Origin: an uncultured candidate division Zixibacteria bacterium
Lineage (GTDB): Bacteria > Zixibacteria > MSB-5A5 > RBG-16-43-9
Assembly (NCBI GenBank): GCA_963713865.1
Contig: OY970208.1
Location: 2,368,001 to 2,432,000 of the forward strand
Direction: 5' to 3'
DNA: 64,000 nucleotides
Each line of letters opens with the position of its first letter. Positions within the stretch are counted from its first letter, which is position 1. A program made the translations under genes and the position numbers. Below, in pieces: positions 214-17,963 of the stretch. The notes below the pieces were generated by a model, which searched no databases, had not been told where the DNA came from, and saw only the letters and a program-made list of their open reading frames with translations.

Positions 214-1729
214 TTAGCTTTTAGCTAAAAACTCCTGTTTGAACTTCTGGATTGCTTCATTTAGTTTTTTCTCAGTTGTTTCATCTAAAACTTTAGTCTG
301 AGATATAGAATGTCTTACATCTGGATACTGGGATTCCATAAATTTATGAAATTCAGCTTCAAAGCTTTTTACCTGCTTCAATTTTAGATCATCTAAATAT
401 CCATGGGTAGCAACATAGATAATCATTACCTGTTTTTCTAAAGGCATAGGCTCGAACTGGACCTGTTTCAAAATCTCAACTGTCTTTTCTCCCCGATTTA
501 ACTGGGATCTGGTGGCCTCGTCTAATTCTGAGCCAAACTGGGCAAAAGCAGCTAACTCCCGGTATTGAGCTAAATCCAGCCTGAGCTTACCTGCTACTTT
601 TTTCATAGCTTTAGTCTGGGCATTACCTCCTACCCTGGAAACAGAGATGCCTACATTGATTGCAGGCCTGACACCAGCATAGAAAAGGTCTGCTTCCAGA
701 TAAATCTGTCCATCAGTGATGGAGATGACATTTGTGGGTATATATGCAGATACATCTCCAGCCTGGGTCTCGATTATCGGCAAGGCAGTTAGAGAGCCAC
801 CCCCTAAATCGTCCCTTAATTTGGCGGCTCTTTCCAAGAGTCGTGAATGTAGATAGAAAATATCGCCTGGATAGGCTTCCCGGGCCTGGAGGTCTTCTTA
901 AAAGCAAAGAGAGCTGTCTGTAGGCTTGAGCATGTTTGGAAAGGTCATCATATATTACCACCACATGTTTTTTATTATATAGAAACTCCTCACCCATAGC
1001 GCAACCAGCATAGGGGGCGATATATTGTAAAGGAGCTGGATCTGCAGCAGGAGCAGCTACTACTGTAGTATATTCCATGGCTTTATAATCCTCAAAGATC
1101 TTCACCACTTGAGCTATGGTTGAATCCTTTTGTCCAACAGCCACATAAATACAATAAATGTCAGAATCCTTTTGATTGATTATAGTATCTAAAGCCAGAG
1201 CAGTTTTTCCAGTTTGACGATCACCAATTATCAATTCTCTCTGGCCACGCCCGATTGGAATCATAGAATCAATTGCTTTCAATCCAGTTTGGACCGGCTC
1301 TTTGACCGGCTGTCTCTGCACTACATTTGGGGCTCTTCCTTCGATGGGACGATATTTATCTGTAACGATAGGACCTTTACCATCCAAAGGTTGTCCCAGG
1401 GCATTGACTACTCTTCCAATTAAAGCATCACCTACCGGGACTGAGGCGATCCTGCCAGTTCTTTTTACAATATCTCCTTCTTTTATCTTCTGGTCTGAGC
1501 CAAAAAGGGCGGCTCCTACATTGTCTTCTTCTAAGTTAAGGATTACTCCAATTATATCATTCGGGAACTGGATTAACTCGCTCATCATCGCATCTTCCAG
1601 TCCCCAGATCCGGGCGATACCATCTCCAACCTGGAGAACAACCCCGACGCTTTCCATTTCTAACCTGGTCTTGTATTTCTCTATCTCTTTTTGAATTATC
1701 TGACTGACCTCTTCGGGTCTTAAAGGCAT
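214..1729 (-). CDS. atpA: ATP synthase F1 alpha subunit, split by an apparent +1 frameshift at ~882-884
   Basis: ORF 713..1729 has GDRQTGKT and ORF 214..837 has the alpha C-terminus; removing one G from 882-884 restores [26 protein letters not shown]. Confidence 0.95.
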
Positions 1730-4766: not shown

Positions 4767-4984
4767 GAATTTTTAAAAATATGTAGCGGTGGTCTTCAGA
4801 CCTCTATATATTAAAATGATTGCAATGGTTTACTGTTTGCTGGTCTCCTGAGCAACAAACATATCTTCGTTGGTGAGGATACCAATCCTACGGACCCCTG
4901 ATTTTGGGTCTGGATGAAAAATTCGGACGAAGAACGGTTGTAAGGGTAGATGGGGCAGAGCCTGAGTTGCCCCTACTATAAAAA

Positions 4985-6437
4985 ATGAAAAAGTCCAACA
5001 GATATCTGCATTACTTTCTTATAACCATAGCTGGCATCTTAATCTTTTTACCAGGTATTTTCTCCTTTTTCAATTCGGATGATTTTGTTCTGGCTAAAAA
5101 ATTCGCAAAAAATAAGTTTTAATACGATATCATCTTTGGCATCAAATTATGACTCGGTTATTAAGTTCAGACCTTTAGTCCATTTTTTCTTCCAGCTTAT
5201 TTATTCTTTCTCCGCATTAAACCCTTTAGGTTATCATCTGACTGGATTAATTTTCCATTTGTTAAACGCCCTTATTTTCTATACTCTGCTCTTGAAATTT
5301 ACCTCCCGTAATCAACTCTCGTTTATCTCTGCATTGATCTTCGTTTCCGGTTTTGCACAGGAAGAAGCTCTTTTCTGGATCTCTGCCATTTCCAGTCTAT
5401 TGGTTACTTTCTTTTACCTCTGTTCAGTCTGGTCTTTCTGGACCTATCTGGAGAATAAAAAGATTGGATTTTATATTATTTCCTTTTTATTATCTGTTTT
5501 AGCTTTACTTTCTAAAGAGGATGGGGTTACTATTTTCTTGGCATTGTTTTTATTGGTTTACTTCAAAACTTCAGGGGAGGTTTTATTTAAACTCAAGCAA
5601 GGTTTCAAGTATGCTTTGCCCTTTTTAGGATTGTCCATTTTATACTCCATGACAAGATATTTGACTGTGCCGGATAATATCATGTCTAAGTTTTTAACTT
5701 TTAATCCGGTGGTAATAATTAAGAACATCTGTTATTTTGGAATAAGCTTACTTTTTCCGGTAAGATTTTTCTTTGACTTAGTTGGCTTTCAGGTGCATTC
5801 CTATTTGAATAATATAATTCAATTAAGATTAGATAATTTCTGGGTGATATCGATTTTGATAATAATAAGTTTGATTTTCCTTTTATCATTTCTCTATTTT
5901 AGGAGAAAGAGAATTTCTGGCTTTAAGTTGGGATTGGTTTTGTTTGTTCTGGGGATTCTGCCTTATCTTCCGGTTAACGGAAATGGGCAACGCTTTCTTT
6001 ATTTTCCTTCTTTGGGATTCTCCATGATCTTGGCGAGTTTGCTCCTTTATATTTCAAACAAAGTAAAGAAGATCAAAGTGTTAAATCTGGTAGTCGTGCT
6101 TATCATGATTTTTAATGGGGCAATTCTTTATGAGCGAAGTAGCTGGTGGAGAAAAGCTGGAAGAGTCTGCCAGGAGATTGTTGATAAGGCGGGAAAGATA
6201 GTTTCGTCTGCTCCTGAGAGTTCAAAAATTTATTTTGCTAACCTCCCCCAAAGGATAAATGGAGCCTATACCTTTCATACTGGTTTTGAAGAAGCAATTC
6301 ATCTTTTTTATCCTGAACATAAAGTAAAGGTTTATGATCTGGGACAGTTTAAAGAAGATGAACTTGAAGTTGTGAGGAATAGTTTTAAGGATAACATTTA
6401 TATTTTTAAGAAAGGAGAGTTTGAGAGGGTATTTTAA
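4985..6437 (+). CDS. Polytopic membrane protein of GT-C (ArnT/PMT-like) type; apparent +1 frameshift at ~5083-5087
   Basis: ATG 4985 gives MKKSNRYLHY...SFFNSDD, which joins ORF 5079..6437 (FRPL, GYHL, ALLSKE, QRFLYFP motifs) if one base is removed. Confidence 0.7.
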
Positions 6438-6442
6438 TTATA

Positions 6443-6840
6443 GAGCCAGGTTTAAAACCTGCCCTTACAAGTTTTTCCCCCGTCTGGTGGCGACTGGGTC
6501 AGAGTGCCATCCCCAAACTTGTTAGGGATGTTATAAATTTAAACACCCTCAAACGAGTTTGAGGGTACCACCCACCTCATTCCATTTCCCGTCTCCTGTC
6601 AGGAGAGTTAGGGGTATAGTCATATTACTTCGGGTTCGATAAATCGAACCACTACAGAAATCGTAACGCACGACCTTCGTGTCGTGCGTCCTTTATTCGT
6701 CCTATAGAAATGTCGGACATTGCAAGTTTTGCCAAAAACAAAAATGGAAGGCTAAAAGCCTTCTGCTATAAAAAAACATCTGGGATAAACCCAGACGCTA
6801 CTGAATCTCCGTGGTCACGATACACGAATCACGGCCACGT
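6443..6840. repeat. Cluster of REP-like palindromes between convergent genes
   Basis: Hairpins such as catccccaaacttgttagggatg, ccctcaaacgagtttgaggg, ggttcgataaatcgaacc, gaaggctaaaagccttc, tctgggataaacccaga-cgctac. Confidence 0.7.
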
Positions 6841-6851
6841 TTTTTTAATCT

Positions 6852-8546
6852 TTAAACCGTAGTCTCAGCAATAACCTCCTCTACAGTAGTAATCCCTTTT
6901 TTTATTTTTTCTATAGCCGCCATCCTCAGAGTCAACATACCATTAGTGACAGCATATTCCTTTATATCCTGACTGGATTTACCCTCCATAATCATCTTCT
7001 CAATCTCCGGGGTTATGGGCATAATTTCAAACAGACCGGTTCTGCCGGAAAAACCGGTATTATTACATTCCTGACAACCCTTACCCTGATAAACCTTGAA
7101 ATCTTTAATCTCGTTCTCCGGAACACCTAATCTCAAAAGTGCTTCCGGCTTCACTTTAACTTCATCTTTGCAAAAATTGCAGATCTTTCTTACCATTCTC
7201 TGAGCCATTATTAATCTTACGGCTGAAGCCACCAGATAACCGGGCACTCCTATGTCTACCAGCCGGTTGATGGTACTCGCCGCATCATTCGTATGCACCG
7301 TAGAGAAAACTAAATGTCCGGTTAAAGCGGCTCGAATAGCTATATCGGCTGTTTCCCCGTCTCTTATCTCTCCCACCATGATAACATCCGGGTCCTGGCG
7401 TAGAAAGGACCTTAAACAGGTGGCAAAGGTAAAACCTATCTCGCTCTTTACCTGCACTTGATTTATCCCATCAAAATTGAACTCAACTGGATCTTCAGCC
7501 GTCATTATATTTATATCCGGTTCATTAATCTGTTTTAAAGCCGAATACAGAGTGGTGGTTTTACCGCTTCCCGTGGGACCGGTTACTAAAACCATTCCGT
7601 AAGGTAACTTGATCGCTTCTGCAAATTGTTTTAATCCCTTTTCCGGAAATCCAAGTTTAGTCAGATCCACCATCAAGCTTCTCGGATCCAGAATACGCAT
7701 AACCACTTTCTCTCCGAAGATAGTTGGCAGAACTGATACTCGAATATCCACTGCCCGGTCTCCTATCTTGACTTTGATCCTTCCATCCTGTGGCAGTCTT
7801 CTCTCTGAAATATCCAAATCTGCCATAATTTTTACCCTGGAGACAATAGCCGGTCGATATTTGAAAGGTAAAGGTGACATCTCCTGCAGGTTACCGTCGA
7901 GTCGGTATCTTACCCTGATCCTTTTTTCGTAGCTCTCAATATGAATATCTGAAGCACCTCTTTTGATGGCATCAGAGATAATTCCATCTACTAATTTAAC
8001 TAATGGTTTATCCTGAACTGCTGAGCGCAGGTCCTGTTCAGTGGGAACCTCTTCGGAAGCTTCGATGACCTCCAGATCCTCATCTTTCATCCCTTTGAGG
8101 ATCTCGTCTATACCGGAACTTTCCTGATAGTAGGCATCGATAGCTTTCTGGATAGCTTTTTCCGGGCTGATGACTGGCTGAATAGAACACCCGGTGATGA
8201 ATTTTACTGCATCTAATACATAGATATTATTGGGATCCGAGATGGCTACAATTAAGGTGCGGCCTAATTTGCTTACCGCAATGACGTTGAATTTCCTGGC
8301 TATATCTGCAGGTATAAGCTTGACCACCTCAGGGTTAAGCTCTATATCCGAAAGCCTTAAAGCTCCTATGTTAAGCTGTCTCCCGATAAATTCAGAGAGC
8401 TCCTCTTCATCCTGGATAGCTCCCATCTTTAACAGGACCTGCCCTAACTTGGCTTCTCCTTTTTTCTGCAGCTCTAAAGCTTTTTCGAGCTGTTCCTGAC
8501 TGATCTTACCAGCCTTGACCAGCATTTCCCCTAATTCCACAGACAT
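6852..8546 (-). CDS. pilB: Type IV pilus extension ATPase PilB (GspE/PulE family) with N-terminal MshEN-like domain
   Basis: GPTGSGKT, AEDPVE, LRQDPDVIMVGEIRD, GHLVFSTVHTN, CxxC...CxxC zinc motif. Confidence 0.93.
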   Translation of the reverse strand: MSVELGEMLVKAGKISQEQLEKALELQKKGEAKLGQVLLKMGAIQDEEELSEFIGRQLNIGALRLSDIELNPEVVKLIPADIARKFNVIAVSKLGRTLIVAISDPNNIYVLDAVKFITGCSIQPVISPEKAIQKAIDAYYQESSGIDEILKGMKDEDLEVIEASEEVPTEQDLRSAVQDKPLVKLVDGIISDAIKRGASDIHIESYEKRIRVRYRLDGNLQEMSPLPFKYRPAIVSRVKIMADLDISERRLPQDGRIKVKIGDRAVDIRVSVLPTIFGEKVVMRILDPRSLMVDLTKLGFPEKGLKQFAEAIKLPYGMVLVTGPTGSGKTTTLYSALKQINEPDINIMTAEDPVEFNFDGINQVQVKSEIGFTFATCLRSFLRQDPDVIMVGEIRDGETADIAIRAALTGHLVFSTVHTNDAASTINRLVDIGVPGYLVASAVRLIMAQRMVRKICNFCKDEVKVKPEALLRLGVPENEIKDFKVYQGKGCQECNNTGFSGRTGLFEIMPITPEIEKMIMEGKSSQDIKEYAVTNGMLTLRMAAIEKIKKGITTVEEVIAETTV

Positions 8547-8629
8547 ACTTCCTGCCCTATCCTACGGATCAGTTTCTCTGAAAGATGGTGAAGCTAAGGC
8601 TAACCCGAATCAGAATCTTAAGGTCAGTT

Positions 8630-9118
8630 CTAATCCTTAAAAATATCATTAAGTCTGTCTTCAGCTGACGCGGTGAACCCGGAATCGATTGCCGGCTCGC
8701 TTTTCTTTTTCTCTTTATGAGCCTGCTCTAAAATCGAAGCCAATTCTTCACCGCACTCCTTAGCATAAAGTCTGACCATACCTATGGTAGTGCGATCATC
8801 GAATATAACCACCAGTATCGATCTTTCACCTACCAAAGTGATATGAATATGGTCCCTTTTTCCCTGATGGAAAAGAACTGAAAATTCTGGCTCACCAACC
8901 AGTCGAGCGATTTCCCGCGTAGAGGCAAAACTTCCTGCCAGAAGAGCTGCCAGAGCAGTTGTATCCAGGGAATGGGTAAAACCCTGACGGGTTATCAGGT
9001 GTCCATCTTTATCCACCAAGAGGGCACACTTAGCTTCAGCCCCTTTGATCAGCTTGATCAAAGTCCGATCGATTTTCTCGATCTCCTCCTCATAGATAAT
9101 CAAGCTATCCTCCTGCAA
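8630..9118 (-). CDS. mglB: MglB roadblock/LC7 protein (GAP of MglA)
   Basis: IYEEE...LVDKDGHLI...DTTALAALLAG...VIFDDRTTIGMVRL plus a C-terminal acidic helix, resembling Myxococcus MglB; adjacent to mglA. Confidence 0.88.
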   Translation of the reverse strand: MQEDSLIIYEEEIEKIDRTLIKLIKGAEAKCALLVDKDGHLITRQGFTHSLDTTALAALLAGSFASTREIARLVGEPEFSVLFHQGKRDHIHITLVGERSILVVIFDDRTTIGMVRLYAKECGEELASILEQAHKEKKKSEPAIDSGFTASAEDRLNDIFKD

Positions 9119-9121
9119 TTT

Positions 9122-10258
9122 TTACCTCCTATCTACTATTTTTCTTATCCATCTCCACCAGAATTTGCCCCAGATGGATTTAGTTCTCTTTTGTTTAAGC
9201 ATAGGAGAAGTGATAATTTTCTCCTGTAAAAGAGGTTTTACTTTTTCAGTTTTAGCTACTTCAGCCGGTTGTTCCAGCACTTCTTTCTCTAAAATCTTCT
9301 CAGTTTCAAGGGCTTCCTTTTCAATTTCGAATTGACCTGGGATTAAAGTTTTCTCTTCCTTTTCACCAACTTCTTCAACTTTCTCTATTCTTTCCTCCTC
9401 GATTTCTATGGTTTTTTCTACTTTCTCTATTCTCTCAACTTTCTCTTCTTTCTCCATTTTCTTTATTGGCTTCTCTTCTTCCATCTTCTTAACTGGCTCA
9501 TACTTCTCTACTGGTTTTTTTTCTAAAACTCCTCTATCCGGAATAATTCTGGAAACTGGCTCTATTTCTATTCTTTCTCTTTCAACTGGAGATGGAACAA
9601 AAAGTTTTGGCTGAGCAACAACTGTAACTTGTTCCTTTTTTACGGATACAAGTTCGGGTTTTTCCTCGGTCTCCGGTTTTCCTCTGGCTTTCTCCAGCAC
9701 TAAATTGCTGATCCCTTTAAGGGTATCGAAAACCCCTTCACCGGTTGACGCCACAGCTTCATAATAAGGTAGTCCTCTGGGGTTCAAAGCCTTCTCCAGC
9801 TCTTCAATAGTTGACACCTCATCTAAGTCTCTTTTATTATATTGCATGATCATCGGAAGCTCTTCTAAGACGTAACCGTACTCTTCCAGGTTCTCCACCA
9901 GATTATTCATGCTTTCGATGTTCTCCTCTAATTTAGCTACTTGCGAATCAGCCACAAAAACTAAACCATCAACTCCTCTTAATACTAACTTACGAGTAGC
10001 ATTATAATAAACCTGACCCGGTACCGTATATAGCTGAAATTTGGTCGAAAACCCCTGCACCGGCCCAATATCCAAAGGTAGAAAATCAAAATAAAGCGTT
10101 CGGTCCGCATCCGTAGCCAAAGAGATCAACTCCCCTTTGGTCTTGGGAGGGGCTTTTTTATGTATATAAATGAGGTTGGTGGTTTTACCACTCAACCCCG
10201 GTCCATAATAAACTATCTTACAGCAGATTTCTCTGAAAGCATAGTTGATCGAGACCAT
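9122..10258 (-). CDS. mglA: MglA small Ras-like GTPase with ~185 aa C-terminal extension
   Basis: KIVYYGPGLSGKTTN, DRTLYFDFLP, LYTVPGQ, QYNKRD, EAVA motifs. Confidence 0.92.
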   Translation of the reverse strand: MVSINYAFREICCKIVYYGPGLSGKTTNLIYIHKKAPPKTKGELISLATDADRTLYFDFLPLDIGPVQGFSTKFQLYTVPGQVYYNATRKLVLRGVDGLVFVADSQVAKLEENIESMNNLVENLEEYGYVLEELPMIMQYNKRDLDEVSTIEELEKALNPRGLPYYEAVASTGEGVFDTLKGISNLVLEKARGKPETEEKPELVSVKKEQVTVVAQPKLFVPSPVERERIEIEPVSRIIPDRGVLEKKPVEKYEPVKKMEEEKPIKKMEKEEKVERIEKVEKTIEIEEERIEKVEEVGEKEEKTLIPGQFEIEKEALETEKILEKEVLEQPAEVAKTEKVKPLLQEKIITSPMLKQKRTKSIWGKFWWRWIRKIVDRR

Positions 10259-10271
10259 GTTGCTCTATTCT

Positions 10272-10649
10272 TTAGAAATTCCGCTCTTTAATCTTGGTTG
10301 CAGTATTTTTGATTTCCAGCCGTATCAACCCGATATTCACATTGGGTTCAGTTGTAACCACTAATATCCCGAAGCCAACATCTGTGAAAAAAAGTTTCCC
10401 CTGTTCGCCTTCAATCGTCATCTGTCTCAGGGCAGTAGTTTTTAATCTCTCTAAGGATTTCTGGACCGTGCTGACGATTGATGCCGCTAGAGCTCCCACT
10501 GTCTCATCCTGAAACCGGGTGTCTAAATCTGCGGCAATAATAATGCCATCATTTCCCACCAGCATACTTCCGGTGATACCGCTAGTCTTATTAAGCTCCT
10601 CTAAGATCTGATACATTTTTTCCCTCCTCCAATCCCGGGAGTTTTCCAT
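10272..10649 (-). CDS. Stand-alone roadblock/LC7 domain protein (true start probably the internal MYQIL)
   Basis: GITGSMLVGNDGIIIA...NIGLIRLEI roadblock pattern. Confidence 0.85.
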   Translation of the reverse strand: MENSRDWRREKMYQILEELNKTSGITGSMLVGNDGIIIAADLDTRFQDETVGALAASIVSTVQKSLERLKTTALRQMTIEGEQGKLFFTDVGFGILVVTTEPNVNIGLIRLEIKNTATKIKERNF

Positions 10650-11493
10650 ATCTTTCTTTTATGAATTTTTTAAGCATCTCAGCTGCTCTTATTATTCGTA
10701 TACTAAGCAATTCATCTGTATTCCGGCTGGCTATAGTCACCAGGGTGAAATCTAAAACCCGGTTCAAATTTATCCACCTTCCGGATGTGAAAAACTGAAT
10801 CCTATCCACCCTGGATTCTCCTATCTTCTTTAAGATGTCAGAGTTCATCTCCTCCAGGCTTAAAGCTAAAGGAGCAATCTTTTCCCCATCCAACCCTTCT
10901 TCACAATCCTGCCCCACCAACAGACCTTCGGAATCTACTAAAAATGCTCCTTCCACTCCGGAATAATCTTTAAGGTAACTCAACGCATTTTCTAAAGTGC
11001 TCTCCTTTATCTCAGCTTTTGGATGAAGTGGAATTACCTCCTCTTTCACCTCGGGTAGAGGTCTTGATCTTTCAAGTTTTTTTTCTCTTTCCAATTTGTA
11101 GATCTTATCCCCGAATGAGAATTTGAAAATAAAAGGTACTAAAACTATCTGAAACAGAATCGAGGGAAGGTAAGCTAACATTCCCAGCTTCAGAGAAAGA
11201 AGTAAATTATAAGAGAACATAAAAGAAATAAGCACCCCAAAGACAAAACCTATGGTAATCCTTAGGAGGAGACTGAAAAAAGAATATACTAAGATTAGAG
11301 AAAAGGAGAGAAAAGGGAAAAGGAAAAAGTAAACCAGGATATACCATATGAACTCAAACGGAAAAAGAAAAAACGGGTTGATCCCAGTCTCTAAATTCTT
11401 TGGAAAAAAGAGAAGCGGGAAAACCGCCAGAAAAGCAGAGAGTATAAAAAGTTGTCGATATTCTTTAAAACTATCTTTATCAGGTTTTTCCAT
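10591..11493 (-). CDS. Multi-TM membrane protein with C-terminal roadblock/LC7 domain
   Basis: About four hydrophobic helices in residues ~14-125, then GVEGAFLVDSEGLLV...LLSIRI. Confidence 0.8.
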   Translation of the reverse strand: MEKPDKDSFKEYRQLFILSAFLAVFPLLFFPKNLETGINPFFLFPFEFIWYILVYFFLFPFLSFSLILVYSFFSLLLRITIGFVFGVLISFMFSYNLLLSLKLGMLAYLPSILFQIVLVPFIFKFSFGDKIYKLEREKKLERSRPLPEVKEEVIPLHPKAEIKESTLENALSYLKDYSGVEGAFLVDSEGLLVGQDCEEGLDGEKIAPLALSLEEMNSDILKKIGESRVDRIQFFTSGRWINLNRVLDFTLVTIASRNTDELLSIRIIRAAEMLKKFIKERYGKLPGLEEGKNVSDLRGA

Positions 11494-11512
11494 CTTTTTG
11501 TCCTTAAATAAA

Positions 11513-12361
11513 TTACTCTTCAGCCAGTCGCCCTAAGATCTGGTCAACCCGTATCTTTAAATACCCTAAATTAGCTTCACTCCTGCATACCAATAACAAA
11601 ATATTTCTTTTTAGTTTAATTGTCCAGAAGCTGAACTCTTCTGCTTCTATCAAAAACTGCTCCAGGTTTCCGAAATTGAGCCTGGGCAAACCTGCTTTTA
11701 TCTCTCTGAAAAGCTCGGCGATAACTGCACCTGAGTTTTCCTGGTTTAAATCGATCTTTAATCTATTTTCTCTAACTAACCCATCCTCACCTACAACCAG
11801 TGCTGCCATAAGATTTGGCAGAGAGGTTAATGAAAAAAGGACTTCTGAAAAAGGTAGATTTTTTTCGACTTTTAGCGGCTCATCTTCTCCTCGAGCCGGT
11901 ACTTCAGGAGGTGTGAATACCACGCCTCTTCTTTTTTCCTCCTTCAAACCTTTCTGAACTTCTTCCAGAAGCGATTTGAGGATTGGGTTCTTTTTGTCAG
12001 TCGATAGAAGTTTTTCAACCATACTTTTCGCCTCTCTAAACTCACCTTTTTTGACCATTATCTGAACAAGAAGCTGTTCTGTAACCCGCGTCCTGCCATC
12101 TGCCTTTATGGCTAAAAGAAGTTCTTTTTCCGCCTCCGAATACATCTCCCGGTCAAAGTTGACCTTAGCCATAATCAGATGGCCAGCTCCATAATCTGGA
12201 TGGTTTTTTAATCCACCCCGGCAAATTTCAAACGACTTGTCCAGCTCTCCTTTTTTCCGGTAAGCTTCTGCCAGAGCGGCAAATATTTGAGAGTCCGGAT
12301 GTTCGGAAAGGATTTTTCGGCACTTCTCTATCCTTTCTTCCAATTCAAGCAATTCTGCCAT
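11513..12361 (-). CDS. TPR-repeat protein with C-terminal roadblock/LC7 domain
   Basis: FAALAEAYRKKGELDKS..IC..GL..HPDY TPR helices; C-terminal MAALVVGEDGLV...ANLGYLKI. Confidence 0.8.
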   Translation of the reverse strand: MAELLELEERIEKCRKILSEHPDSQIFAALAEAYRKKGELDKSFEICRGGLKNHPDYGAGHLIMAKVNFDREMYSEAEKELLLAIKADGRTRVTEQLLVQIMVKKGEFREAKSMVEKLLSTDKKNPILKSLLEEVQKGLKEEKRRGVVFTPPEVPARGEDEPLKVEKNLPFSEVLFSLTSLPNLMAALVVGEDGLVRENRLKIDLNQENSGAVIAELFREIKAGLPRLNFGNLEQFLIEAEEFSFWTIKLKRNILLLVCRSEANLGYLKIRVDQILGRLAEE

Positions 12362-12484
12362 AATCTTTTCTCTCTAAAAAAGATATACCATAAAATTTAT
12401 CGACAGTTTAAAGAGATAACTTTACTGTAAAAGAATACACTCTACCGGTCCGGGAAACGGATCTGTAGGATATCGTGACAGTTT

Positions 12485-12871
12485 TCAGCCGAGTTTCTTC
12501 CTTATCCGGATGAATCCAAAAACCAGTAGGATAAAGCCAAAAAACTGTAAAAGCAAAACAAAAGCTGAAATGCTATTTATCGCCCCTAAACTGCTCAGGA
12601 ATTCCAGGAAAATGGAGACAAATAAAATCGATAAGGCTATGCTTGATAAAACCCAGGCGGAGGAGAGTTCCCCGCCTTTAAGCAGTGAATGGATTTTGAG
12701 AGCAAAAAATATTCCGCCGCCTAACACTGTTAGGATAAAAATCGATAACAAAGCTCCTGCAAAGGAAACCTCCCCTTTACTCTGCTCCTGAGCCAGACAA
12801 TCTCTTCCGGAGAAAAAAAACAAGACTAAGATCATTAATCCCAGATGAAATTTTGATTTAAGTCTGAGCAA
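12485..12871 (-). CDS. Small membrane protein (signal-like N-terminus + ~3 TM), function unknown
   Basis: Hydrophobicity pattern; GGAGG RBS before TTG start. Confidence 0.65.
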   Translation of the reverse strand: MLRLKSKFHLGLMILVLFFFSGRDCLAQEQSKGEVSFAGALLSIFILTVLGGGIFFALKIHSLLKGGELSSAWVLSSIALSILFVSIFLEFLSSLGAINSISAFVLLLQFFGFILLVFGFIRIRKKLG

Positions 12872-12880
12872 CCATCCCTC

Positions 12881-14086
12881 CTAAGCTATCTCCTCGCCTT
12901 TTAAAGCAAGTTTGAGAATTCTGTACAGATCATCCTCTATATCAAATTTTTTAACGATCTCCATCTCCTTCAAAAAATAATGAGCTGTGCTTTTTTTAAT
13001 CTCGCCAATCATCTTCCGGGTGATATCTTCTCCTACGAAATGATAGGCTAAGGTCAGATAACTTAAAAGCAAACTCTGCAATCCCTGAAAGATCTGATGA
13101 AATCTAATCTCTTCTGGAATCTTGTACAGAGATATATTGCGATAGGCTTCTGTTAATTCCCGGGATTGAATCAAGGTTCCGTTTTTCATTAAATGATTTA
13201 AAACCGGAAATATGGATTTTTTTTGATTTAGAGCTTTATCCCAGAGTTTTTCCTGAACCTTACCTAACTTCTGTACCAGAATTTTGTCCACAACTGAATA
13301 GCTGGTGGAGAATACCTGAAGCAATATCTCGATTATAACTGCTTCTTCTCTTTTTTTATCTTTTTTGGTTTGGGTTTTTTCGCCGGGGATAACCAATCCC
13401 TGATCCAGTAGCCTCAGCAGCGCCCTGGATGCATCGTATTCACCTAACGGGCTTTCCGCTAAAATATCCGGATAAGTTTTATCCCCGTCTACCATAAGCA
13501 GGGTTTTGAATTCACCCAGGCTAAGATTTATGGCATTGGACCCGATTTTAGGATTAGGATTTCCTTTCAGAATCACATTGTCTTTAGGAAGACTTTTCTG
13601 CATCTCCAACATCTCGTCGATTTTCCTGGTTCCTTCCATGATGACATTAATCGTATTCATATTGGTGGTTATCTGTCCCTCGACCGGCTCTTTGCCATCC
13701 TGAAAAGTAAAATCACCTTCCTTCCAGCTAAAAAGATTATAGACGATCTCCTCGATCTGCAGTTTCAAACAGGCCACCAGTTCCTCTTTTTTCAATAAAC
13801 CCATCTCTACAATGGTTACGCCAATCCTCTTGCCCGTAGTCCGGTGAAGTTTCAAGACCTCGTTTAACTCTTGCTGTGAGATCTTACCTAACCTTAAAAG
13901 AAGATTCCCCAGGAGCTCCTCTTCAGCATTAGAGGAAGTAGCATAAACTATATTCCCTTCCTGGAAATAAATTTCTTTTCTCTGAGTCTGGCGCATCAGG
14001 GTGAGCATACCGCTCTTTTTGCTGGAGCTGATCAACTGCAACAGATCAGGAAAAGAGACTGTATTTAGATTCCCCGTTAAACTCAT
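12881..14086 (-). CDS. DUF4388 (PatA-N-like) protein with MshEN-like segment
   Basis: MSLTGNL...FPDLLQLI...KSGML...IYF.EG.IV.A and LFSWKEGDF.F; LGNLLLRLGKIS...RIG. Confidence 0.8.
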   Translation of the reverse strand: MSLTGNLNTVSFPDLLQLISSSKKSGMLTLMRQTQRKEIYFQEGNIVYATSSNAEEELLGNLLLRLGKISQQELNEVLKLHRTTGKRIGVTIVEMGLLKKEELVACLKLQIEEIVYNLFSWKEGDFTFQDGKEPVEGQITTNMNTINVIMEGTRKIDEMLEMQKSLPKDNVILKGNPNPKIGSNAINLSLGEFKTLLMVDGDKTYPDILAESPLGEYDASRALLRLLDQGLVIPGEKTQTKKDKKREEAVIIEILLQVFSTSYSVVDKILVQKLGKVQEKLWDKALNQKKSIFPVLNHLMKNGTLIQSRELTEAYRNISLYKIPEEIRFHQIFQGLQSLLLSYLTLAYHFVGEDITRKMIGEIKKSTAHYFLKEMEIVKKFDIEDDLYRILKLALKGEEIA

Positions 14087-14087
14087 C

Positions 14088-16383
14088 TTAAAGCTTACCG
14101 ATTAATTTTTCCTTTCTCAAGGCTGTTTTGATTTGATACTTTGCTTCCTTAACCTCAATTACTACCGCGCCCAGCTTTGAAGTCTCGAAAATCTCTTTAA
14201 GGTCAGCCTTGAAAAAATTAAGCCTCTTATAGCCTGATATAATTAGTTTTAAATCATTTTTTTCATTCAGGTAATGACCTATCCAGCCTGAATCTTCTCC
14301 TTGCAGATTAAAACTTACTATATCGGGTTTTAACTTGATGGCTAAGCTTTCCGGGAAAGAACCTTCAGCCAGCAACAGCTTAAATTTCCCGTAACTCAGC
14401 ATCAAAGGGGGATTATGTTCAAATATCCCCCTTTCAAATTTTTTATCGGGATAAATCGAGAAAACCTTAACTCTTGACCAGAACCTGATTTAACTCTTTC
14501 AAATCTCTGATTCCGACTTTAGCTCCATAAAGTTTTTTTAAAACCGGGCTCCCATCCTCAACCACCCAGATCTCTTTCACCTTTATCTCTCTTAGAAGCT
14601 CGGAAACTTTTTCCTCTAACCTTTTTTCATCTGTAAGGATCAGCCCATCCAGCTGGTTAATCCCTTTTTTATAAAGAAAAGGAAGGATAATCCTTTCCAC
14701 CTCCTGAGGGTCTTCTGATAGATTTATCAATACTTTTTTGCTCTGGGGAGCTTCTACCAGAACTGCCTCACCTGAAGCTGAAAGATAGGTGATTCTCAGT
14801 TCGGATGACCGGTTGTTAAGGGAATTAAAAATCAAAAGAAAACCTACCCAGAAAAAACCCATAAAAGACAATATTAACAAGAATGCTTTTAGACTTTTTT
14901 GAAAAATAGCTGCAAAAAGAGAAAGATAAAAAGTTAAAATGAAAAGATAGGAGGGTGAAGAGACTTTCAAATCTGCATAAGGAAGGGAAGAGAAAAAAGA
15001 TAGAATTCTCAGTATAAGCTCCAAACAAAGCCAGTTGAAAGAAGTAAATACAATAGATAGCTTCAAGCTTAAAAGGCTGATCAGAAGTGAAATCGCCCCT
15101 ACCATAACTACTAAACCGGTGAGCGGTACGATAAAAAGATTAGCCAAAAGGGAATAAATAGAGAATTTATTAAAATAATAAGCTGTAACCGGATAGGTGA
15201 AAAGCTGAGCTGAGAGTGAAACAAAAAAGGGAAGCGCTATATAATATTTGAAGAACCGGTTTTTGAGTTTGGAGAGGAAAAGCTTCTCCAATTTTGGAAC
15301 CCAGAGGATCAAACCCAGGGTAGCCGCAAAAGATAATTGAAAACCGACATCGAAAAGAGAAGATGGATTTGCGAAAAGTATTACCAGGGCCGCCAAAGCC
15401 CAGATATTGATCAAATCCCTTTCCCGCTCGACCAGAAGTGAAATAAGGAAAATTGAGGCCATAATCGAGGCTCTAACCACAGAGGGCTGGTTCCCGGTAA
15501 CAAAAGAGAATATTATGATCAGGAGAAAAACTAAAAGTAATGAGACCTGGTAAGGTATCCTCAAAAGTTTGAAAGCTCCAAAAAAGACAAGAACAACTAT
15601 AGCCACGTTTGAGCCGGATATGGCTAAAAGATGAAGGGTGCCGGTATCGGTGAAAAGCTTATAGACCTCCTGTGGAATACCTCTTCTCTCCCCTAAGACA
15701 AAACCGCTCAAAATTGCTTGGTGAGAGCCGGTCAGGCTGCTCTTAAAGAAATTAAGAATATAATATTTCACTGGAAGAATTATCTTGGAGATAAAAAAAT
15801 TACCTTCCCCCCTCTCTAATATCTTTACTTCAGAATCACTCCGTAAATTCAGGCAACCAAAGATTTCCCTGGTGCTAAGATATTTTCTATAATCAAAAGC
15901 CCCCGGATTTTTGGGAGGGAAAGGAGAGTAAAGATAACCCTTGAGCTGAATCAAATCACCGTAATTGAAAAGGCTGGTCGGCTGTTTGATTTTCAAAAGG
16001 ATTTTACCGGTGGTTTTAATCTTCTTATGATTAAAAGACAATTCCCGGGTATCCATCTCTAAAAATGTTTTATCCTCTCTTATATCCGGGTCTTTACAGA
16101 TGATGCCGATCAGCTCAACCTTGCCATATTGTTTTGTGAAATTAGAGATGTGATTTATGGGTAAGTCCCTGGTTTTTAACTCGTATCTCCAGAATCCGGC
16201 TACGATCAAAAGAAGAGTCAGGAGAATAAACCAGGTCTTCTTTTCCTGACGAAAAAAGAACAGTAGAAAAAGTAAACACAAAATAAGGAAGAGTAAAATC
16301 AGTGTAGACAGGTTCAGGTAATCCCCCAAAAGAATCCCGATAATATAAGCCAGCAGTGCCAGAAGAGCTGGTCTGCGTTTCAA
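14088..16383 (-). CDS. comEC: ComEC/Rec2 DNA uptake channel; C-terminal ~125 aa shifted by an apparent +1 frameshift near 14470-14490
   Basis: NPGAFDY, GTLHLLAISGSN, SVVRASIM, GFQLSFAA motifs; the shifted frame reads VKVFSIYP...LMLSYGKFKLLL, typical of the ComEC C-terminal domain. Confidence 0.88.
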
Positions 16384-17963
16384 GTTTTTCCCCTCTTGAA
16401 TCCTAAAATTCCCAATACTCGCTCGACTTCCTTTATCTTCAAAGCTTTGGCAAAGAAAAGATAGCTAAAAAAAGAAACCATAACCATAACGCTTACCAGG
16501 ACCAGTTTCTGGATTAAACTCCCTTTATCTAAATCCACCCGGTAGAGAAAAAGAAAACTCTGCAATAAAATACCCATTAAAAAAGAGGCTAAAAGAATTT
16601 TCAGGAAACTGTCTCTCAAATCTTTTTTATCAAAAGGTCCAACCCTCTTATCCAGTTTATTAAAAAGGATGGACATATTCAGGACAGCCGAAATAGAAGT
16701 AGCTAAAGCCAGTCCACGAAAACTTAAAGAATGCATAAGGACCAGATTCAAGCTGATGTTAGCCCCAACTGCAATAGCACTGCTAATCACCGGCACTTTA
16801 GCTTCACCTAAGGCATAGAAAACCGGTGCTAAAACCCGGACCGAGGCATAGGCGAAAAGCCCGAGGGCATAGAGGATCAGTGCCTGAGAGGTAGCTTGCG
16901 TGTCTGTGTAAATAAATTTCCCATGTTGATATAAAAGGGAGATGATCGGCTTTGCGCCAACTGCTAAAAAGATGGTTGAGGGTAAAGTCAAGAAAAAGAT
17001 AAGTTTCAGAGAAGAGCCGCAGGTGGAGACAAGTTCTTCAAAATTTTTCTGTGCCGCCTTTGCAGCTAAAATCGGAAAGGTAACCGTAGCAACTGCAACC
17101 CCGAAAACCCCTAAGGGGAAATTCATTAACCTGAAACTGTAATTCAAATAGGAAACGCTCCCCTGGGGTAAAAGGGAAGCTATTAAAGTATTGACGAAGA
17201 TATTTACCTGAGTGGAAGCTAATCCTAATATAGCTGGAGTCATCAGCCAGAGGATTTTTTTTACTCCCGGGTCTTTCCAGTCCAGGATCGGTTTGTATCT
17301 ATACCCTGATCTGAACAATACCGGCACCTGGATGAATAGTTGTCCAGCCCCGCCTAAAAGCACTCCCACAGCCATCCCGATGATCGGTGTTTTCAAAAAT
17401 GGGGAGATTAGAAATCCGGCTAAGATCATCCCTAAATTCAGCATTGTCGGGGCTAAAGCAGGTGCTCCAAACTTTCCTAAGGAGTTTAAAATCCCCATAC
17501 AAACCGCGGCTAAAGAGACCAGAAGCAGAAACGGGAACATTATCCGCGTCAAAAGGGTGGTCAGCTCTATCTTCCCTTCGATCTTATTAAACCCCGGAGC
17601 TATTAAATTGACAATCGCAGGGGAAAATATTATCCCTAAAATTATTATGATAGATAAAACGATTACCAGCAGGTTAATCACTAAATTAGTCAAACGAAAA
17701 GCATCTTCTTTCCCCTGAAGAGTTAGCTTTTCAGTGAAAACCGGTATAAAAGCGCTGGAGAGCGCCCCCTCAGCTAAAAGGTCTCTTAATAGATTGGGGA
17801 TGCGAAAAGCCGCCACAAAGGCATCTGTGGCTAAGCCTGCCCCGAAAAGATAGGCGAAAACCTGCTCCCTTATAAGCCCGAAAACTCTGGACAAAAAAGT
17901 AGCAGAGCTGACTACTCCTGTAGACCTGACTATCTTATCTTTTGTTTCCTGAGTCTGCACCAT
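16380..17963 (-). CDS. murJ: Lipid II flippase MurJ (MviN)
   Basis: SRVFGLIRE, AFRIPNLLRDLLAEGALSSAFIP. Confidence 0.95.
   Translation of the reverse strand: MVQTQETKDKIVRSTGVVSSATFLSRVFGLIREQVFAYLFGAGLATDAFVAAFRIPNLLRDLLAEGALSSAFIPVFTEKLTLQGKEDAFRLTNLVINLLVIVLSIIIILGIIFSPAIVNLIAPGFNKIEGKIELTTLLTRIMFPFLLLVSLAAVCMGILNSLGKFGAPALAPTMLNLGMILAGFLISPFLKTPIIGMAVGVLLGGAGQLFIQVPVLFRSGYRYKPILDWKDPGVKKILWLMTPAILGLASTQVNIFVNTLIASLLPQGSVSYLNYSFRLMNFPLGVFGVAVATVTFPILAAKAAQKNFEELVSTCGSSLKLIFFLTLPSTIFLAVGAKPIISLLYQHGKFIYTDTQATSQALILYALGLFAYASVRVLAPVFYALGEAKVPVISSAIAVGANISLNLVLMHSLSFRGLALATSISAVLNMSILFNKLDKRVGPFDKKDLRDSFLKILLASFLMGILLQSFLFLYRVDLDKGSLIQKLVLVSVMVMVSFFSYLFFAKALKIKEVERVLGILGFKRGKT

Follow-up and report, generated by a model that had tools for sequence, protein, structure and literature searches.

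The gene cluster described here lies in a 64,000-nt stretch of an uncultured Zixibacteria genome (the window; contig OY970208.1 of assembly GCA_963713865.1, positions 2,368,001 to 2,432,000), where positions 6852-16383 are occupied by a single co-oriented set of minus-strand genes. In gene order, these encode ComEC, a PATAN (DUF4388) protein, a small integral membrane protein, a TPR-roadblock protein (TPR-Rb), a transmembrane (TM)-roadblock protein (TM-Rb), a free-standing roadblock protein, the Ras-like GTPase MglA, its partner MglB, and the type IV pilus extension ATPase PilB (Table 1). An original prediction, made from the letters of this DNA alone, had placed a membrane-tethered MglA module with four roadblock proteins between comEC and pilB, and the gene order, spacing, and co-orientation that it gave were recovered as minus-strand open reading frames (ORFs). 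Intergenic spacing ranges from a 26-nt overlap to 123 nt, and the TM-Rb and free roadblock genes overlap; the free roadblock ORF can be read from 10649, with the conserved start MYQILEEL at 10616 being more likely. The cluster is best described as an unusual variant of the known MglA/MglB pilus-control system, its new elements being the TM-roadblock and TPR-roadblock fusions, a third roadblock paralogue, a conserved small membrane protein, and a tailed MglA.

The single MglA copy of the genome contains a canonical G domain. Residues 3-191 aligned without gaps to MglA of Myxococcus xanthus (5ymx_A; phmmer E = 6.6e-78) and of Thermus thermophilus (E = 1.1e-71), and the alignment recovered the motifs GPGLSGKTT (P-loop), DRTLYFDF (containing Arg53), TVPGQ (containing Thr78 and Gln82), and NKRD. 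Arg53, Thr78 (in place of the G3 aspartate), and Gln82 were invariant in 16 of 16 MglA orthologues; the roles of the Arg53 finger, Thr78, and the catalytic Gln82 are described in PMC3000849 and PMC10933270. By sequence, the G domain falls into Group 1 of the MglA family (Wuichet and Sogaard-Andersen 2015). In length, the protein departs from the single-domain Group 1 size of ∼195 residues, which was also the size given in the original prediction: mglA encodes 378 amino acids, and 15 start-trimmed orthologues range from 314 to 463. MglA-like proteins of 207-662 amino acids are abundant (7999 of 8000 scored candidates at E ≤1e-20, a set to which no taxonomy is attached).

Beyond residue 195, MglA continues into a 183-residue tail that is rich in Glu (23 %) and Lys (17 %) and has no second folded domain. 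The tail could not be aligned and varied in length among 16 orthologues, consistent with a linker that is probably disordered. At its end, however variable the linker before it, a basic run followed by aromatic and hydrophobic residues was found in 35 of 35 orthologues (e.g., KKRGFFKRLFGIK). In the window, net charge over the final 25 residues is +9, and the best 14-residue stretch, WGKFWWRWIRKIVD, has a hydrophobic moment of 0.83. Ends such as KKRGFFKRLFGIK resemble that of Escherichia coli MinD (KKGFLKRLFGG), which is a membrane-targeting amphipathic helix. The likeness is likely to reflect convergence; unlike in MinD, the Zixibacteria peptide sits on a Ras-like GTPase via a long disordered linker and not directly on a ParA-type ATPase. 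Related metagenome contigs differ in the linker by indels of 42 nt, of 5+1+3+3 nt, and of 6+9+6 nt, all of them in frame, which speaks for a need to preserve the reading frame of the C-terminal peptide. The "membrane-tethered" MglA of the original prediction survives as a protein with a predicted C-terminal amphipathic peptide, and not as one with a TM helix.

MglB matched M. xanthus MglB (6izw_B) with a phmmer E value of 7.8e-37 over residues 5-161, C-terminal extension included, and scored 51 bits with Robl_LC7 (Pfam cut-off 23). With the Thermus-type equivalog NF052242, a model built for a narrow group, it reached 97.7 bits, below the cut-off of 200. Mean column identity among orthologues is 73 %. 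The protein is therefore predicted, from its sequence, to be the orthologue of the Myxococcus GTPase-activating protein (GAP) and to stimulate GTP hydrolysis by MglA. The mglB start lies 3 nt past the mglA stop, and the two genes are adjacent in 35 of 35 loci. If its start is set at the closest start codon upstream, mglB would begin with TTG or GTG in the window (9116-9118) and in 14 of 15 orthologues; a putative TTG or GTG start ≤3 nt after mglA is a hint of translational coupling.

Robl_LC7 matches in the genome number four in total, each inside this cluster, and two of them (MglB and the free roadblock protein) clear the Pfam cut-off of 23 bits. To place the C-terminal domains of the two fusion proteins, hhalign profiles built from 15-16 orthologues were compared with the free-roadblock profile. 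TPR-Rb residues 169-280 matched at a probability of 98.9 % (E = 2.2e-17) and TM-Rb residues 164-275 at 96.5 % (E = 8.3e-10); PF03259 is also precomputed on many relatives of TPR-Rb. In the AlphaFold2 model of TM-Rb (mean predicted local distance difference test score [pLDDT] 80.2), helices at 6-28, 40-58, 64-93, and 97-143 are followed by a disordered linker (144-163) and by a roadblock topology (alpha-beta-beta-alpha-beta-beta-beta-alpha) at 167-282, while hydropathy places the hydrophobic stretch at residues 12-129. The TPR-Rb model (mean pLDDT 86.2) has eight helices at 2-146 with pLDDT ∼90, a disordered linker, and the same roadblock topology at residues 171-276. Foldseek searches with the predicted roadblock structures gave as top matches MglB, Asgard Roadblock, and LAMTOR2/p14, with TM-scores of 0.8-0.9. 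The best match for TPR-Rb was 7yh1_A (E = 2.8e-07, TM-score 0.88), and TM-Rb matched MglB 6hjm (E = 2.3e-08). In VIA, TM-Rb reached Z scores of 19.5 to Roadblock3 9jue_D (root-mean-square deviation 1.2 over 115 residues) and 17.9 to MglB 6hjm_A. Profile comparison and predicted fold together confirm the C-terminal domains of TM-Rb and TPR-Rb as roadblock folds. The cluster accordingly carries the four distinct roadblock domains of the original prediction, one integral to the membrane and one fused to TPRs, as recognized by Pfam, hhalign, and AlphaFold2 models with their fold matches.

The three roadblock domains other than MglB are mutually closer in profile space (E = 2.2e-17, 4.8e-12, and 8.3e-10) than any of them is to MglB (E = 2.4e-06, 1.5e-06, and 1e-03). 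For the free roadblock protein, which has a mean column identity of 63 % among orthologues, the nearest solved relative is Asgard Roadblock 7yh1_D (3.2e-10), as compared to just 0.007 for MglB. Assembly of these domains was addressed by complex prediction with full-length TPR-Rb, TM-Rb 160-290, and the free roadblock protein, MglA 1-195 being the scored partner. This returned a score of 0.00 against a mark of 0.32 and gave no answer either way; the four-chain design is also unlike the tool's calibration. The roadblock proteins MglC and MglB are reported to be homodimers that stack. For the Zixibacteria domains, hetero-dimers, homodimers, and roles as co-factors of a GAP or guanine nucleotide exchange factor (GEF) are each possible. 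An assignment of the free roadblock protein as the orthologue of MglC, a roadblock paralogue of MglB (PMC4719450), was rejected, MglC being absent from its sequence matches at E ≤0.1.

Indirect hints point to a narrow range for the TM-roadblock family. Among 1.84 billion proteins, 462 representatives matched at E ≤0.001 and 124 at E ≤1e-30; the Atlas neighbours of TM-Rb are Zixibacteria without exception; and all 12 NCBI-named rows among the 120 TPR-Rb relatives listed are Zixibacteria. As a separate observation, many proteins of 116-156 aa in the representative library (P0348 and P0360-P0391) match the roadblock part of the TM-Rb profile alone (E = 1e-24 to 1e-50), and may be gene fragments at contig ends or free-standing relatives of the TM-Rb roadblock domain.

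PilB was identified by the TIGR02538 equivalog (731 bits; cut-off 675.65), the GspE model remaining below its cut-off (608.8 vs 630.25 bits), and by Pfam T2SSE (4.4e-142) and MshEN. Its residues 5-57 score 50.9 bits with NF053729, the MshE-type cyclic di-GMP (c-di-GMP) motif (cut-off 38). Elsewhere in the genome, pilM and a secretin gene stand together, pilC adjoins a PilT-like gene, and two PilT-like genes are present. A second ATPase (551 aa) adjoins T2SSF and secretin matches and looks like part of a type II secretion set; read in this way, it would leave the pilB of the cluster as the sole pilus extension ATPase. The PATAN protein matches PF14332 at 115.7 bits (cut-off 25), residues 4-158 lying on profile positions 1-120, and contains an MshEN-like two-repeat "alpha-clip" insertion at approximately residues 58-110 (NF053729, 43.6 bits vs a cut-off of 38; motif read according to PMC5013675). 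Its C-terminal region of ∼240 residues belongs to no family; the nearest Atlas clusters to residues 165-401 come from Thermodesulfobacteriota, Acidobacteriota, and Myxococcota, a lead only. A second PATAN/DUF4388 protein is encoded outside the window (G000:C1:117510-117980), with two matched stretches within a 290-aa frame. The small 128-aa membrane protein has 3-4 hydrophobic segments and no Pfam or NCBIfam match.

Conservation was surveyed in 15 loci from 9 families and in 20 further loci, with 18 Zixibacteria families represented overall; genome searches covered the window's own phylum. The order and strand of the genes for PATAN, TPR-Rb, TM-Rb, free roadblock, MglA, MglB, and PilB were kept in 15/15 and 20/20 loci, an arrangement that is not due to chance and that bears out the expectation of a cluster conserved in relatives. 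Of 41 relatives, 39 have TM-Rb, as do 199 of the 201 genomes that were sampled within the phylum. By sequence, the small membrane protein could be recognized in 13/15 and 9/20 loci, and an ORF with 2-4 TM segments occupied its position in all 35. Following pilB, a PilT-like gene was found in 13/15 and 19/20 loci, the window's own family not being among those that have it. The comEC gene lies upstream in 10/15 and 20/20 loci, so that the comEC link of the original prediction is real as synteny (30/35 loci) while failing in family f2, in which 5 of 5 loci have no comEC upstream. A narrower TM-Rb alignment scan of genome contigs placed 29 of 29 loci in Zixibacteria-type metagenome-assembled genomes; the two TM-Rb peptide patterns used reach close relatives alone, so that this count is no test of other phyla.

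In one genome, G034 (family f5, 96 % complete), the seven-gene PATAN-to-mglB block is missing as a unit and comEC directly adjoins pilB-pilT; the pilB is orthologous (67 % identity), and neither MglA nor any Robl_LC7 match was found anywhere in the 96 % complete genome. Genome G088 (96 % complete) has neither the block nor an orthologous PilB (best match 41 %), and its absence may be an assembly gap.

In the window, comEC is split into two ORFs of 638 and 105 residues. The model TIGR00361 is reached at 192.8 bits (cut-off 190.05), and ComEC of relatives is encoded in a single frame of 743-819 aa. Treatment of the 105-aa ORF as a separate gene was rejected: it matches the C terminus of the 762-792-aa ComEC proteins of loci L013 and L014, and the split results from a one-base frameshift. 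Compared to a same-genus locus, the window has one extra base in the region 14467-14490 (indel reported at 14482/14484), which is absent from 3 of 3 metagenome contigs covering the site. The atpA gene (ATP synthase alpha; 214-1729, minus strand) is also divided, into two overlapping ORFs, of which 713-1729 carries the N-terminal domain and nucleotide-binding positions 1-135 and 214-837 carries positions 149-213 and the C-terminal domain. Two such splits, the one in atpA being a frameshift in an essential gene, point to indel errors in the single-contig assembly and not to real gene loss; the comEC split is thus probably an assembly error, or else a private mutation. Genes upstream of the run include one resembling geranylgeranyl reductase, along with Rieske/cytochrome b genes. 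On the 3′ side of pilB, an unrelated plus-strand ORF without a family is followed by an F-type ATP synthase operon. This ORF (5079-6437, 452 aa), which has no Pfam family and separates the hairpin after pilB from the ATP synthase genes, has homologues ≤20 kb from the cluster in loci L016 (1e-79) and L021 (5e-13).

Table 1. Features of the mglA-pilB cluster and its borders in the window, followed by the block-free locus L077 (G034:C30:52000-71900; positions within that locus).
Feature	Position	Strand	Basis
murJ, upstream end of the gene run	16380-17963	-	Pfam MurJ 1.4e-123
comEC, N-terminal 638 aa, DUF4131 and Competence domains	14467-16383	-	Pfam Competence 2.8e-64, DUF4131 4.7e-34
ComEC, detached C-terminal piece, 105-aa ORF	14088-14405	-	match to C terminus of relatives' ComEC
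PATAN (DUF4388) protein, 401 aa	12881-14086	-	Pfam DUF4388 1.6e-33
Small integral membrane protein, 128 aa	12485-12871	-	hydropathy segments
TPR-Rb, whole ORF	11513-12361	-	Pfam TPR and hhalign roadblock
TPR-Rb, TPR domain, residues 1-146, eight helices	11924-12361	-	Pfam TPR_19, TPR_14 1e-07
TPR-Rb, linker (145-166), roadblock domain (169-280), and stop codon	11513-11923	-	hhalign, Foldseek
TM-Rb, 300 aa, whole ORF	10591-11493	-	four hydrophobic helices and roadblock domain
TM-Rb, membrane domain of four long hydrophobic helices (residues 1-143)	11065-11493	-	AlphaFold2, hydropathy
TM-Rb, linker (144-163), roadblock domain (164-282), tail, and stop	10591-11064	-	hhalign, Foldseek, VIA
Free-standing roadblock protein, 114 aa	10272-10616	-	Pfam Robl_LC7 1.1e-14
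mglA, 378 aa, whole ORF	9122-10258	-	M. xanthus MglA match (phmmer)
MglA, G domain, residues 1-195	9674-10258	-	phmmer 5ymx_A 6.6e-78
MglA, Glu/Lys-rich linker of variable length, probably disordered	9200-9673	-	composition, orthologue alignment
MglA, polybasic amphipathic peptide at the C terminus (last 25 residues) and stop	9122-9199	-	predicted membrane-targeting sequence
MglA-tail indel sites in related metagenome contigs	9130-9132, 9365-9413	-	contig comparison
mglB, 162 aa, roadblock GAP homologue with C-terminal extension	8630-9118	-	Pfam Robl_LC7 1.2e-13
pilB, type IVa pilus extension ATPase with N-terminal MshEN-type motif	6852-8546	-	TIGR02538, NF053729, Pfam
Terminator-like hairpin after pilB, 10 pairs then T run	6775-6799	-	consensus scan
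L077, comEC	8036-10741
L077, pilB	6051-7763
L077, pilT-like gene	4831-5991

We favor, as fairly probable, a reading of the cluster as an MglA/MglB switch operon placed before pilB and, in most families, pilT, in which lineage-specific parts hold the switch at the cytoplasmic membrane. MglA would be held at the inner membrane by its long flexible tail ending in a MinD-like amphipathic peptide, and MglB, as the predicted orthologue of the Myxococcus GAP, would switch it off. The three paralogous roadblock domains (four-TM, TPR-borne, and free) would form a membrane-anchored set of adaptors or regulators for MglA and/or MglB, in a role resembling that of MglC in Myxococcus, so that the switch would be held at the membrane doubly, by the peptide of MglA itself and by TM-Rb. 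The TPR domain and the PATAN protein would convey to PilB/PilC, at the base of the pilus, that the switch is "on," the TPR relay being modelled on SgmX in Myxococcus and the PATAN relay on cyanobacteria. The outcome would be control of where and when pili extend, for twitching and probably for DNA uptake via ComEC.

Individual links in this scheme have precedents. PATAN genes occasionally lie beside mglA genes of Group 1 and Group 5, an adjacency that was recorded earlier for MglB homologues (PMC4316618); cyanobacterial PATAN domains bind the PilB1 N terminus and PilC (bioRxiv 10.1101/2021.06.11.447907); and in Myxococcus the TPR protein SgmX, itself recruited by MglA, takes PilB to the pole (PMC11580455). 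With these three links in print, the "new system" of the original prediction was an overstatement. The Myxococcus polarity and type IVa pilus module (MglA, MglB, MglC, RomR/RomX, SgmX, FrzS, and SopA) shares with the Zixibacteria cluster an orthologous MglA G domain and MglB, an extra roadblock paralogue beside MglB (MglC there), and a TPR protein with PilB as output (PMC11580455). Its parts are scattered over the genome, whereas those of Zixibacteria all stand in one operon with pilB. The latter further differs from Myxococcus in having three roadblock domains beyond MglB, one of which is fused to a TM domain and another to TPRs, in an MglA with a tail of 120-320 residues and a predicted membrane peptide, and in a block without a receiver-domain protein. 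TPR-Rb has a TPR domain in common with SgmX, and MglA-GTP binding and PilB recruitment could be ascribed to it by analogy. In Thermus thermophilus the MglA/MglB pair is likewise tied to type IV pilus localization, which mglA and mglB deletions disturb (PMC12024867). The Thermus genome also has PATAN and Robl_LC7 matches. At 198 residues, the MglA chain solved for Thermus lacks the tail of the Zixibacteria protein, and we know of no membrane roadblock protein in Thermus. The PATAN protein resembles cyanobacterial PixG/PixE in its PATAN domain with a two-repeat "alpha-clip" insertion and departs from them in having no receiver domain and, in its place, the C-terminal region without a family.

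In the literature searched, outside which most subscription journals lie, no paper was found on Zixibacteria and MglA, nothing relevant on a membrane peptide of MglA, and none of TM-Rb, the TPR-roadblock fusion, or a tailed MglA; the gene-neighbourhood supplements of PMC4316618 may list similar clusters. A transmembrane roadblock protein together with MglB was likewise not found there, the "transmembrane" of PMC4316618 concerning, in its available parts, CvnA histidine kinases.

Several points weigh against a membrane-held switch operon acting on PilB. Co-transcription is suggested by the spacing of the genes and by one terminator-like hairpin, and consensus scans gave little excess over shuffled expectation for promoter-like sites (21 vs 19.7) or terminator-like sites (20 vs 13.3). 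Profile searches recovered the DUF4388, TPR, and two of the Robl_LC7 domains that the original prediction had called for, and left the two fused roadblock domains below the PF03259 gathering score of 23 (17.6; 20.1 and 17.9 bits). Membrane targeting by the C-terminal peptide of MglA is predicted from its composition and its likeness to MinD. In the MshEN motif of the PATAN protein, the second half-site is canonical, and in the first L replaces R and H replaces Q; as the motif is also only partly and loosely kept among 16 orthologues, a c-di-GMP input is doubtful. We infer how the products touch one another, that the tail binds the membrane, in which direction the signal runs, and what the physiological output is. 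To our knowledge no Zixibacterium has been cultured, so that pili and motility are undocumented for the organism. Finally, G034 keeps comEC and pilB-pilT without the block, which indicates that the pilus motor is not strictly dependent on it. That the block was dispensable for retention of pilB-pilT in G034 also fits a regulator and not a core part of the machine.

The same roadblock domains could be arranged differently. The original prediction drew an analogy to the eukaryotic Ragulator, under which all four roadblock domains would hetero-dimerize on the membrane protein and build a fixed scaffold that docks MglA and positions a pilus/DNA-uptake machine. Such an assembly is suggested by the four distinct domains of the operon, one membrane-integral and three mutually paralogous, by the overlap of the TM-Rb and free roadblock genes, and by the LAMTOR2/p14 of Ragulator among the fold matches, Ragulator being two roadblock heterodimers at a membrane (PMC10933270). 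What stands of the analogy is the presence of several distinct roadblock domains at the membrane beside a small GTPase. Its docking mechanism does not carry over, as Rag GTPases dock via C-terminal roadblock domains of their own and MglA has no such domain, ending in a disordered tail instead; the predicted membrane peptide of MglA would also make a scaffold unnecessary for membrane recruitment. The anchors differ as well, a four-TM domain in Zixibacteria and a lipidated wrap-around protein in Ragulator, and the two roadblock sets are likely of independent origin. MglB and Asgard Roadblock3 crystallized as homodimers, which makes four homodimers equally possible, and we hold the fixed hetero-dimeric scaffold to be a tentative alternative, on the doubtful side. 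In a more far-reaching form, Zixibacteria would have independently built a eukaryote-style platform, with a tailed, polybasic-anchored Ras-like GTPase and a membrane multi-roadblock hetero-complex gating PilB/ComEC uptake; this form appears unlikely to us. So too does its detailed version, in which the Ragulator-like hetero-complex brings the GTPase, together with its GAP, to the basal part of the type IV pilus and the tail is like a hypervariable region. A different role for the same proteins, which we also consider possible but doubtful, is that of a sensory front end: membrane proteins, roadblock paralogues, and PATAN would answer a cue (envelope, surface, or c-di-GMP) by setting the MglA nucleotide state, as GEF/GAP co-factors rather than as an anchor. 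In actinobacterial conservons (CvnA-D), one conserved operon encodes a sensor in the membrane along with a roadblock protein and a GTPase of the MglA family (PMC4316618), and the 63 % column identity of the free roadblock protein fits a catalytic or regulatory contact. The block also contains two conserved membrane proteins of no assigned function, and both PATAN and PilB exceed the NCBIfam cut-off for the MshE-type motif. Unlike the conservon, however, the Zixibacteria block has no histidine kinase or CvnC-type protein and has pilB as its output gene, and its MglA, unlike that of Group 2, keeps the arginine finger. With Pfam and NCBIfam, no domain of the block was recognized as a sensor, a kinase, or a receiver; the short loops of the TM domain leave little room for a periplasmic sensor; and in the first half of the PATAN MshEN motif neither the Arg nor the Gln that has been named as a ligand contact is present.

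The output of the switch may also be other than assumed. With comEC immediately upstream in 30/35 loci, and adjoining pilB-pilT in G034, the block could mainly govern a DNA-uptake pilus together with ComEC and not surface motility, and in Thermus MglA/MglB has been studied with regard to pilus functions and natural competence (Salzer 2015). Family f2, which keeps the block without comEC upstream (5/5 loci), and G034, in which comEC, pilB, and pilT remain together without the block, both speak against this, and the murJ-comEC adjacency may be plain synteny; we judge a primary role in competence to be improbable. Lastly, division, gliding, secretion, or another polar process might be what the switch serves, its place beside pilB being a matter of inherited order. 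MglA also controls gliding in Myxococcus, and pilB-pilT of G034 would work as a pair without the block. Set against this are the position of the block, between comEC and pilB in 30/35 loci and directly upstream of pilB in 35/35, the published ties of PATAN, of TPR proteins, and of MglA/MglB to PilB, and the G088 assembly, which has neither the block nor an orthologous PilB. Such hitch-hiking we regard as very improbable.

MglA/MglB is the model for a bacterial Ras-like switch that sets polarity and aims pili, and in Myxococcus the route from this switch to the membrane machine is still debated. On the reading of the cluster as a membrane-held switch operon, which rests on predictions throughout, the Zixibacteria operon would offer a compact list of parts from which the missing MglA-PilB link might be made up, and family f5 a natural knock-out for comparison. 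It may also represent a bacterial counterpart to eukaryotic membrane-anchored small GTPases and roadblock scaffolds, and would as such be relevant to bacterial polarity, to pili, and to the evolution of small-GTPase platforms.

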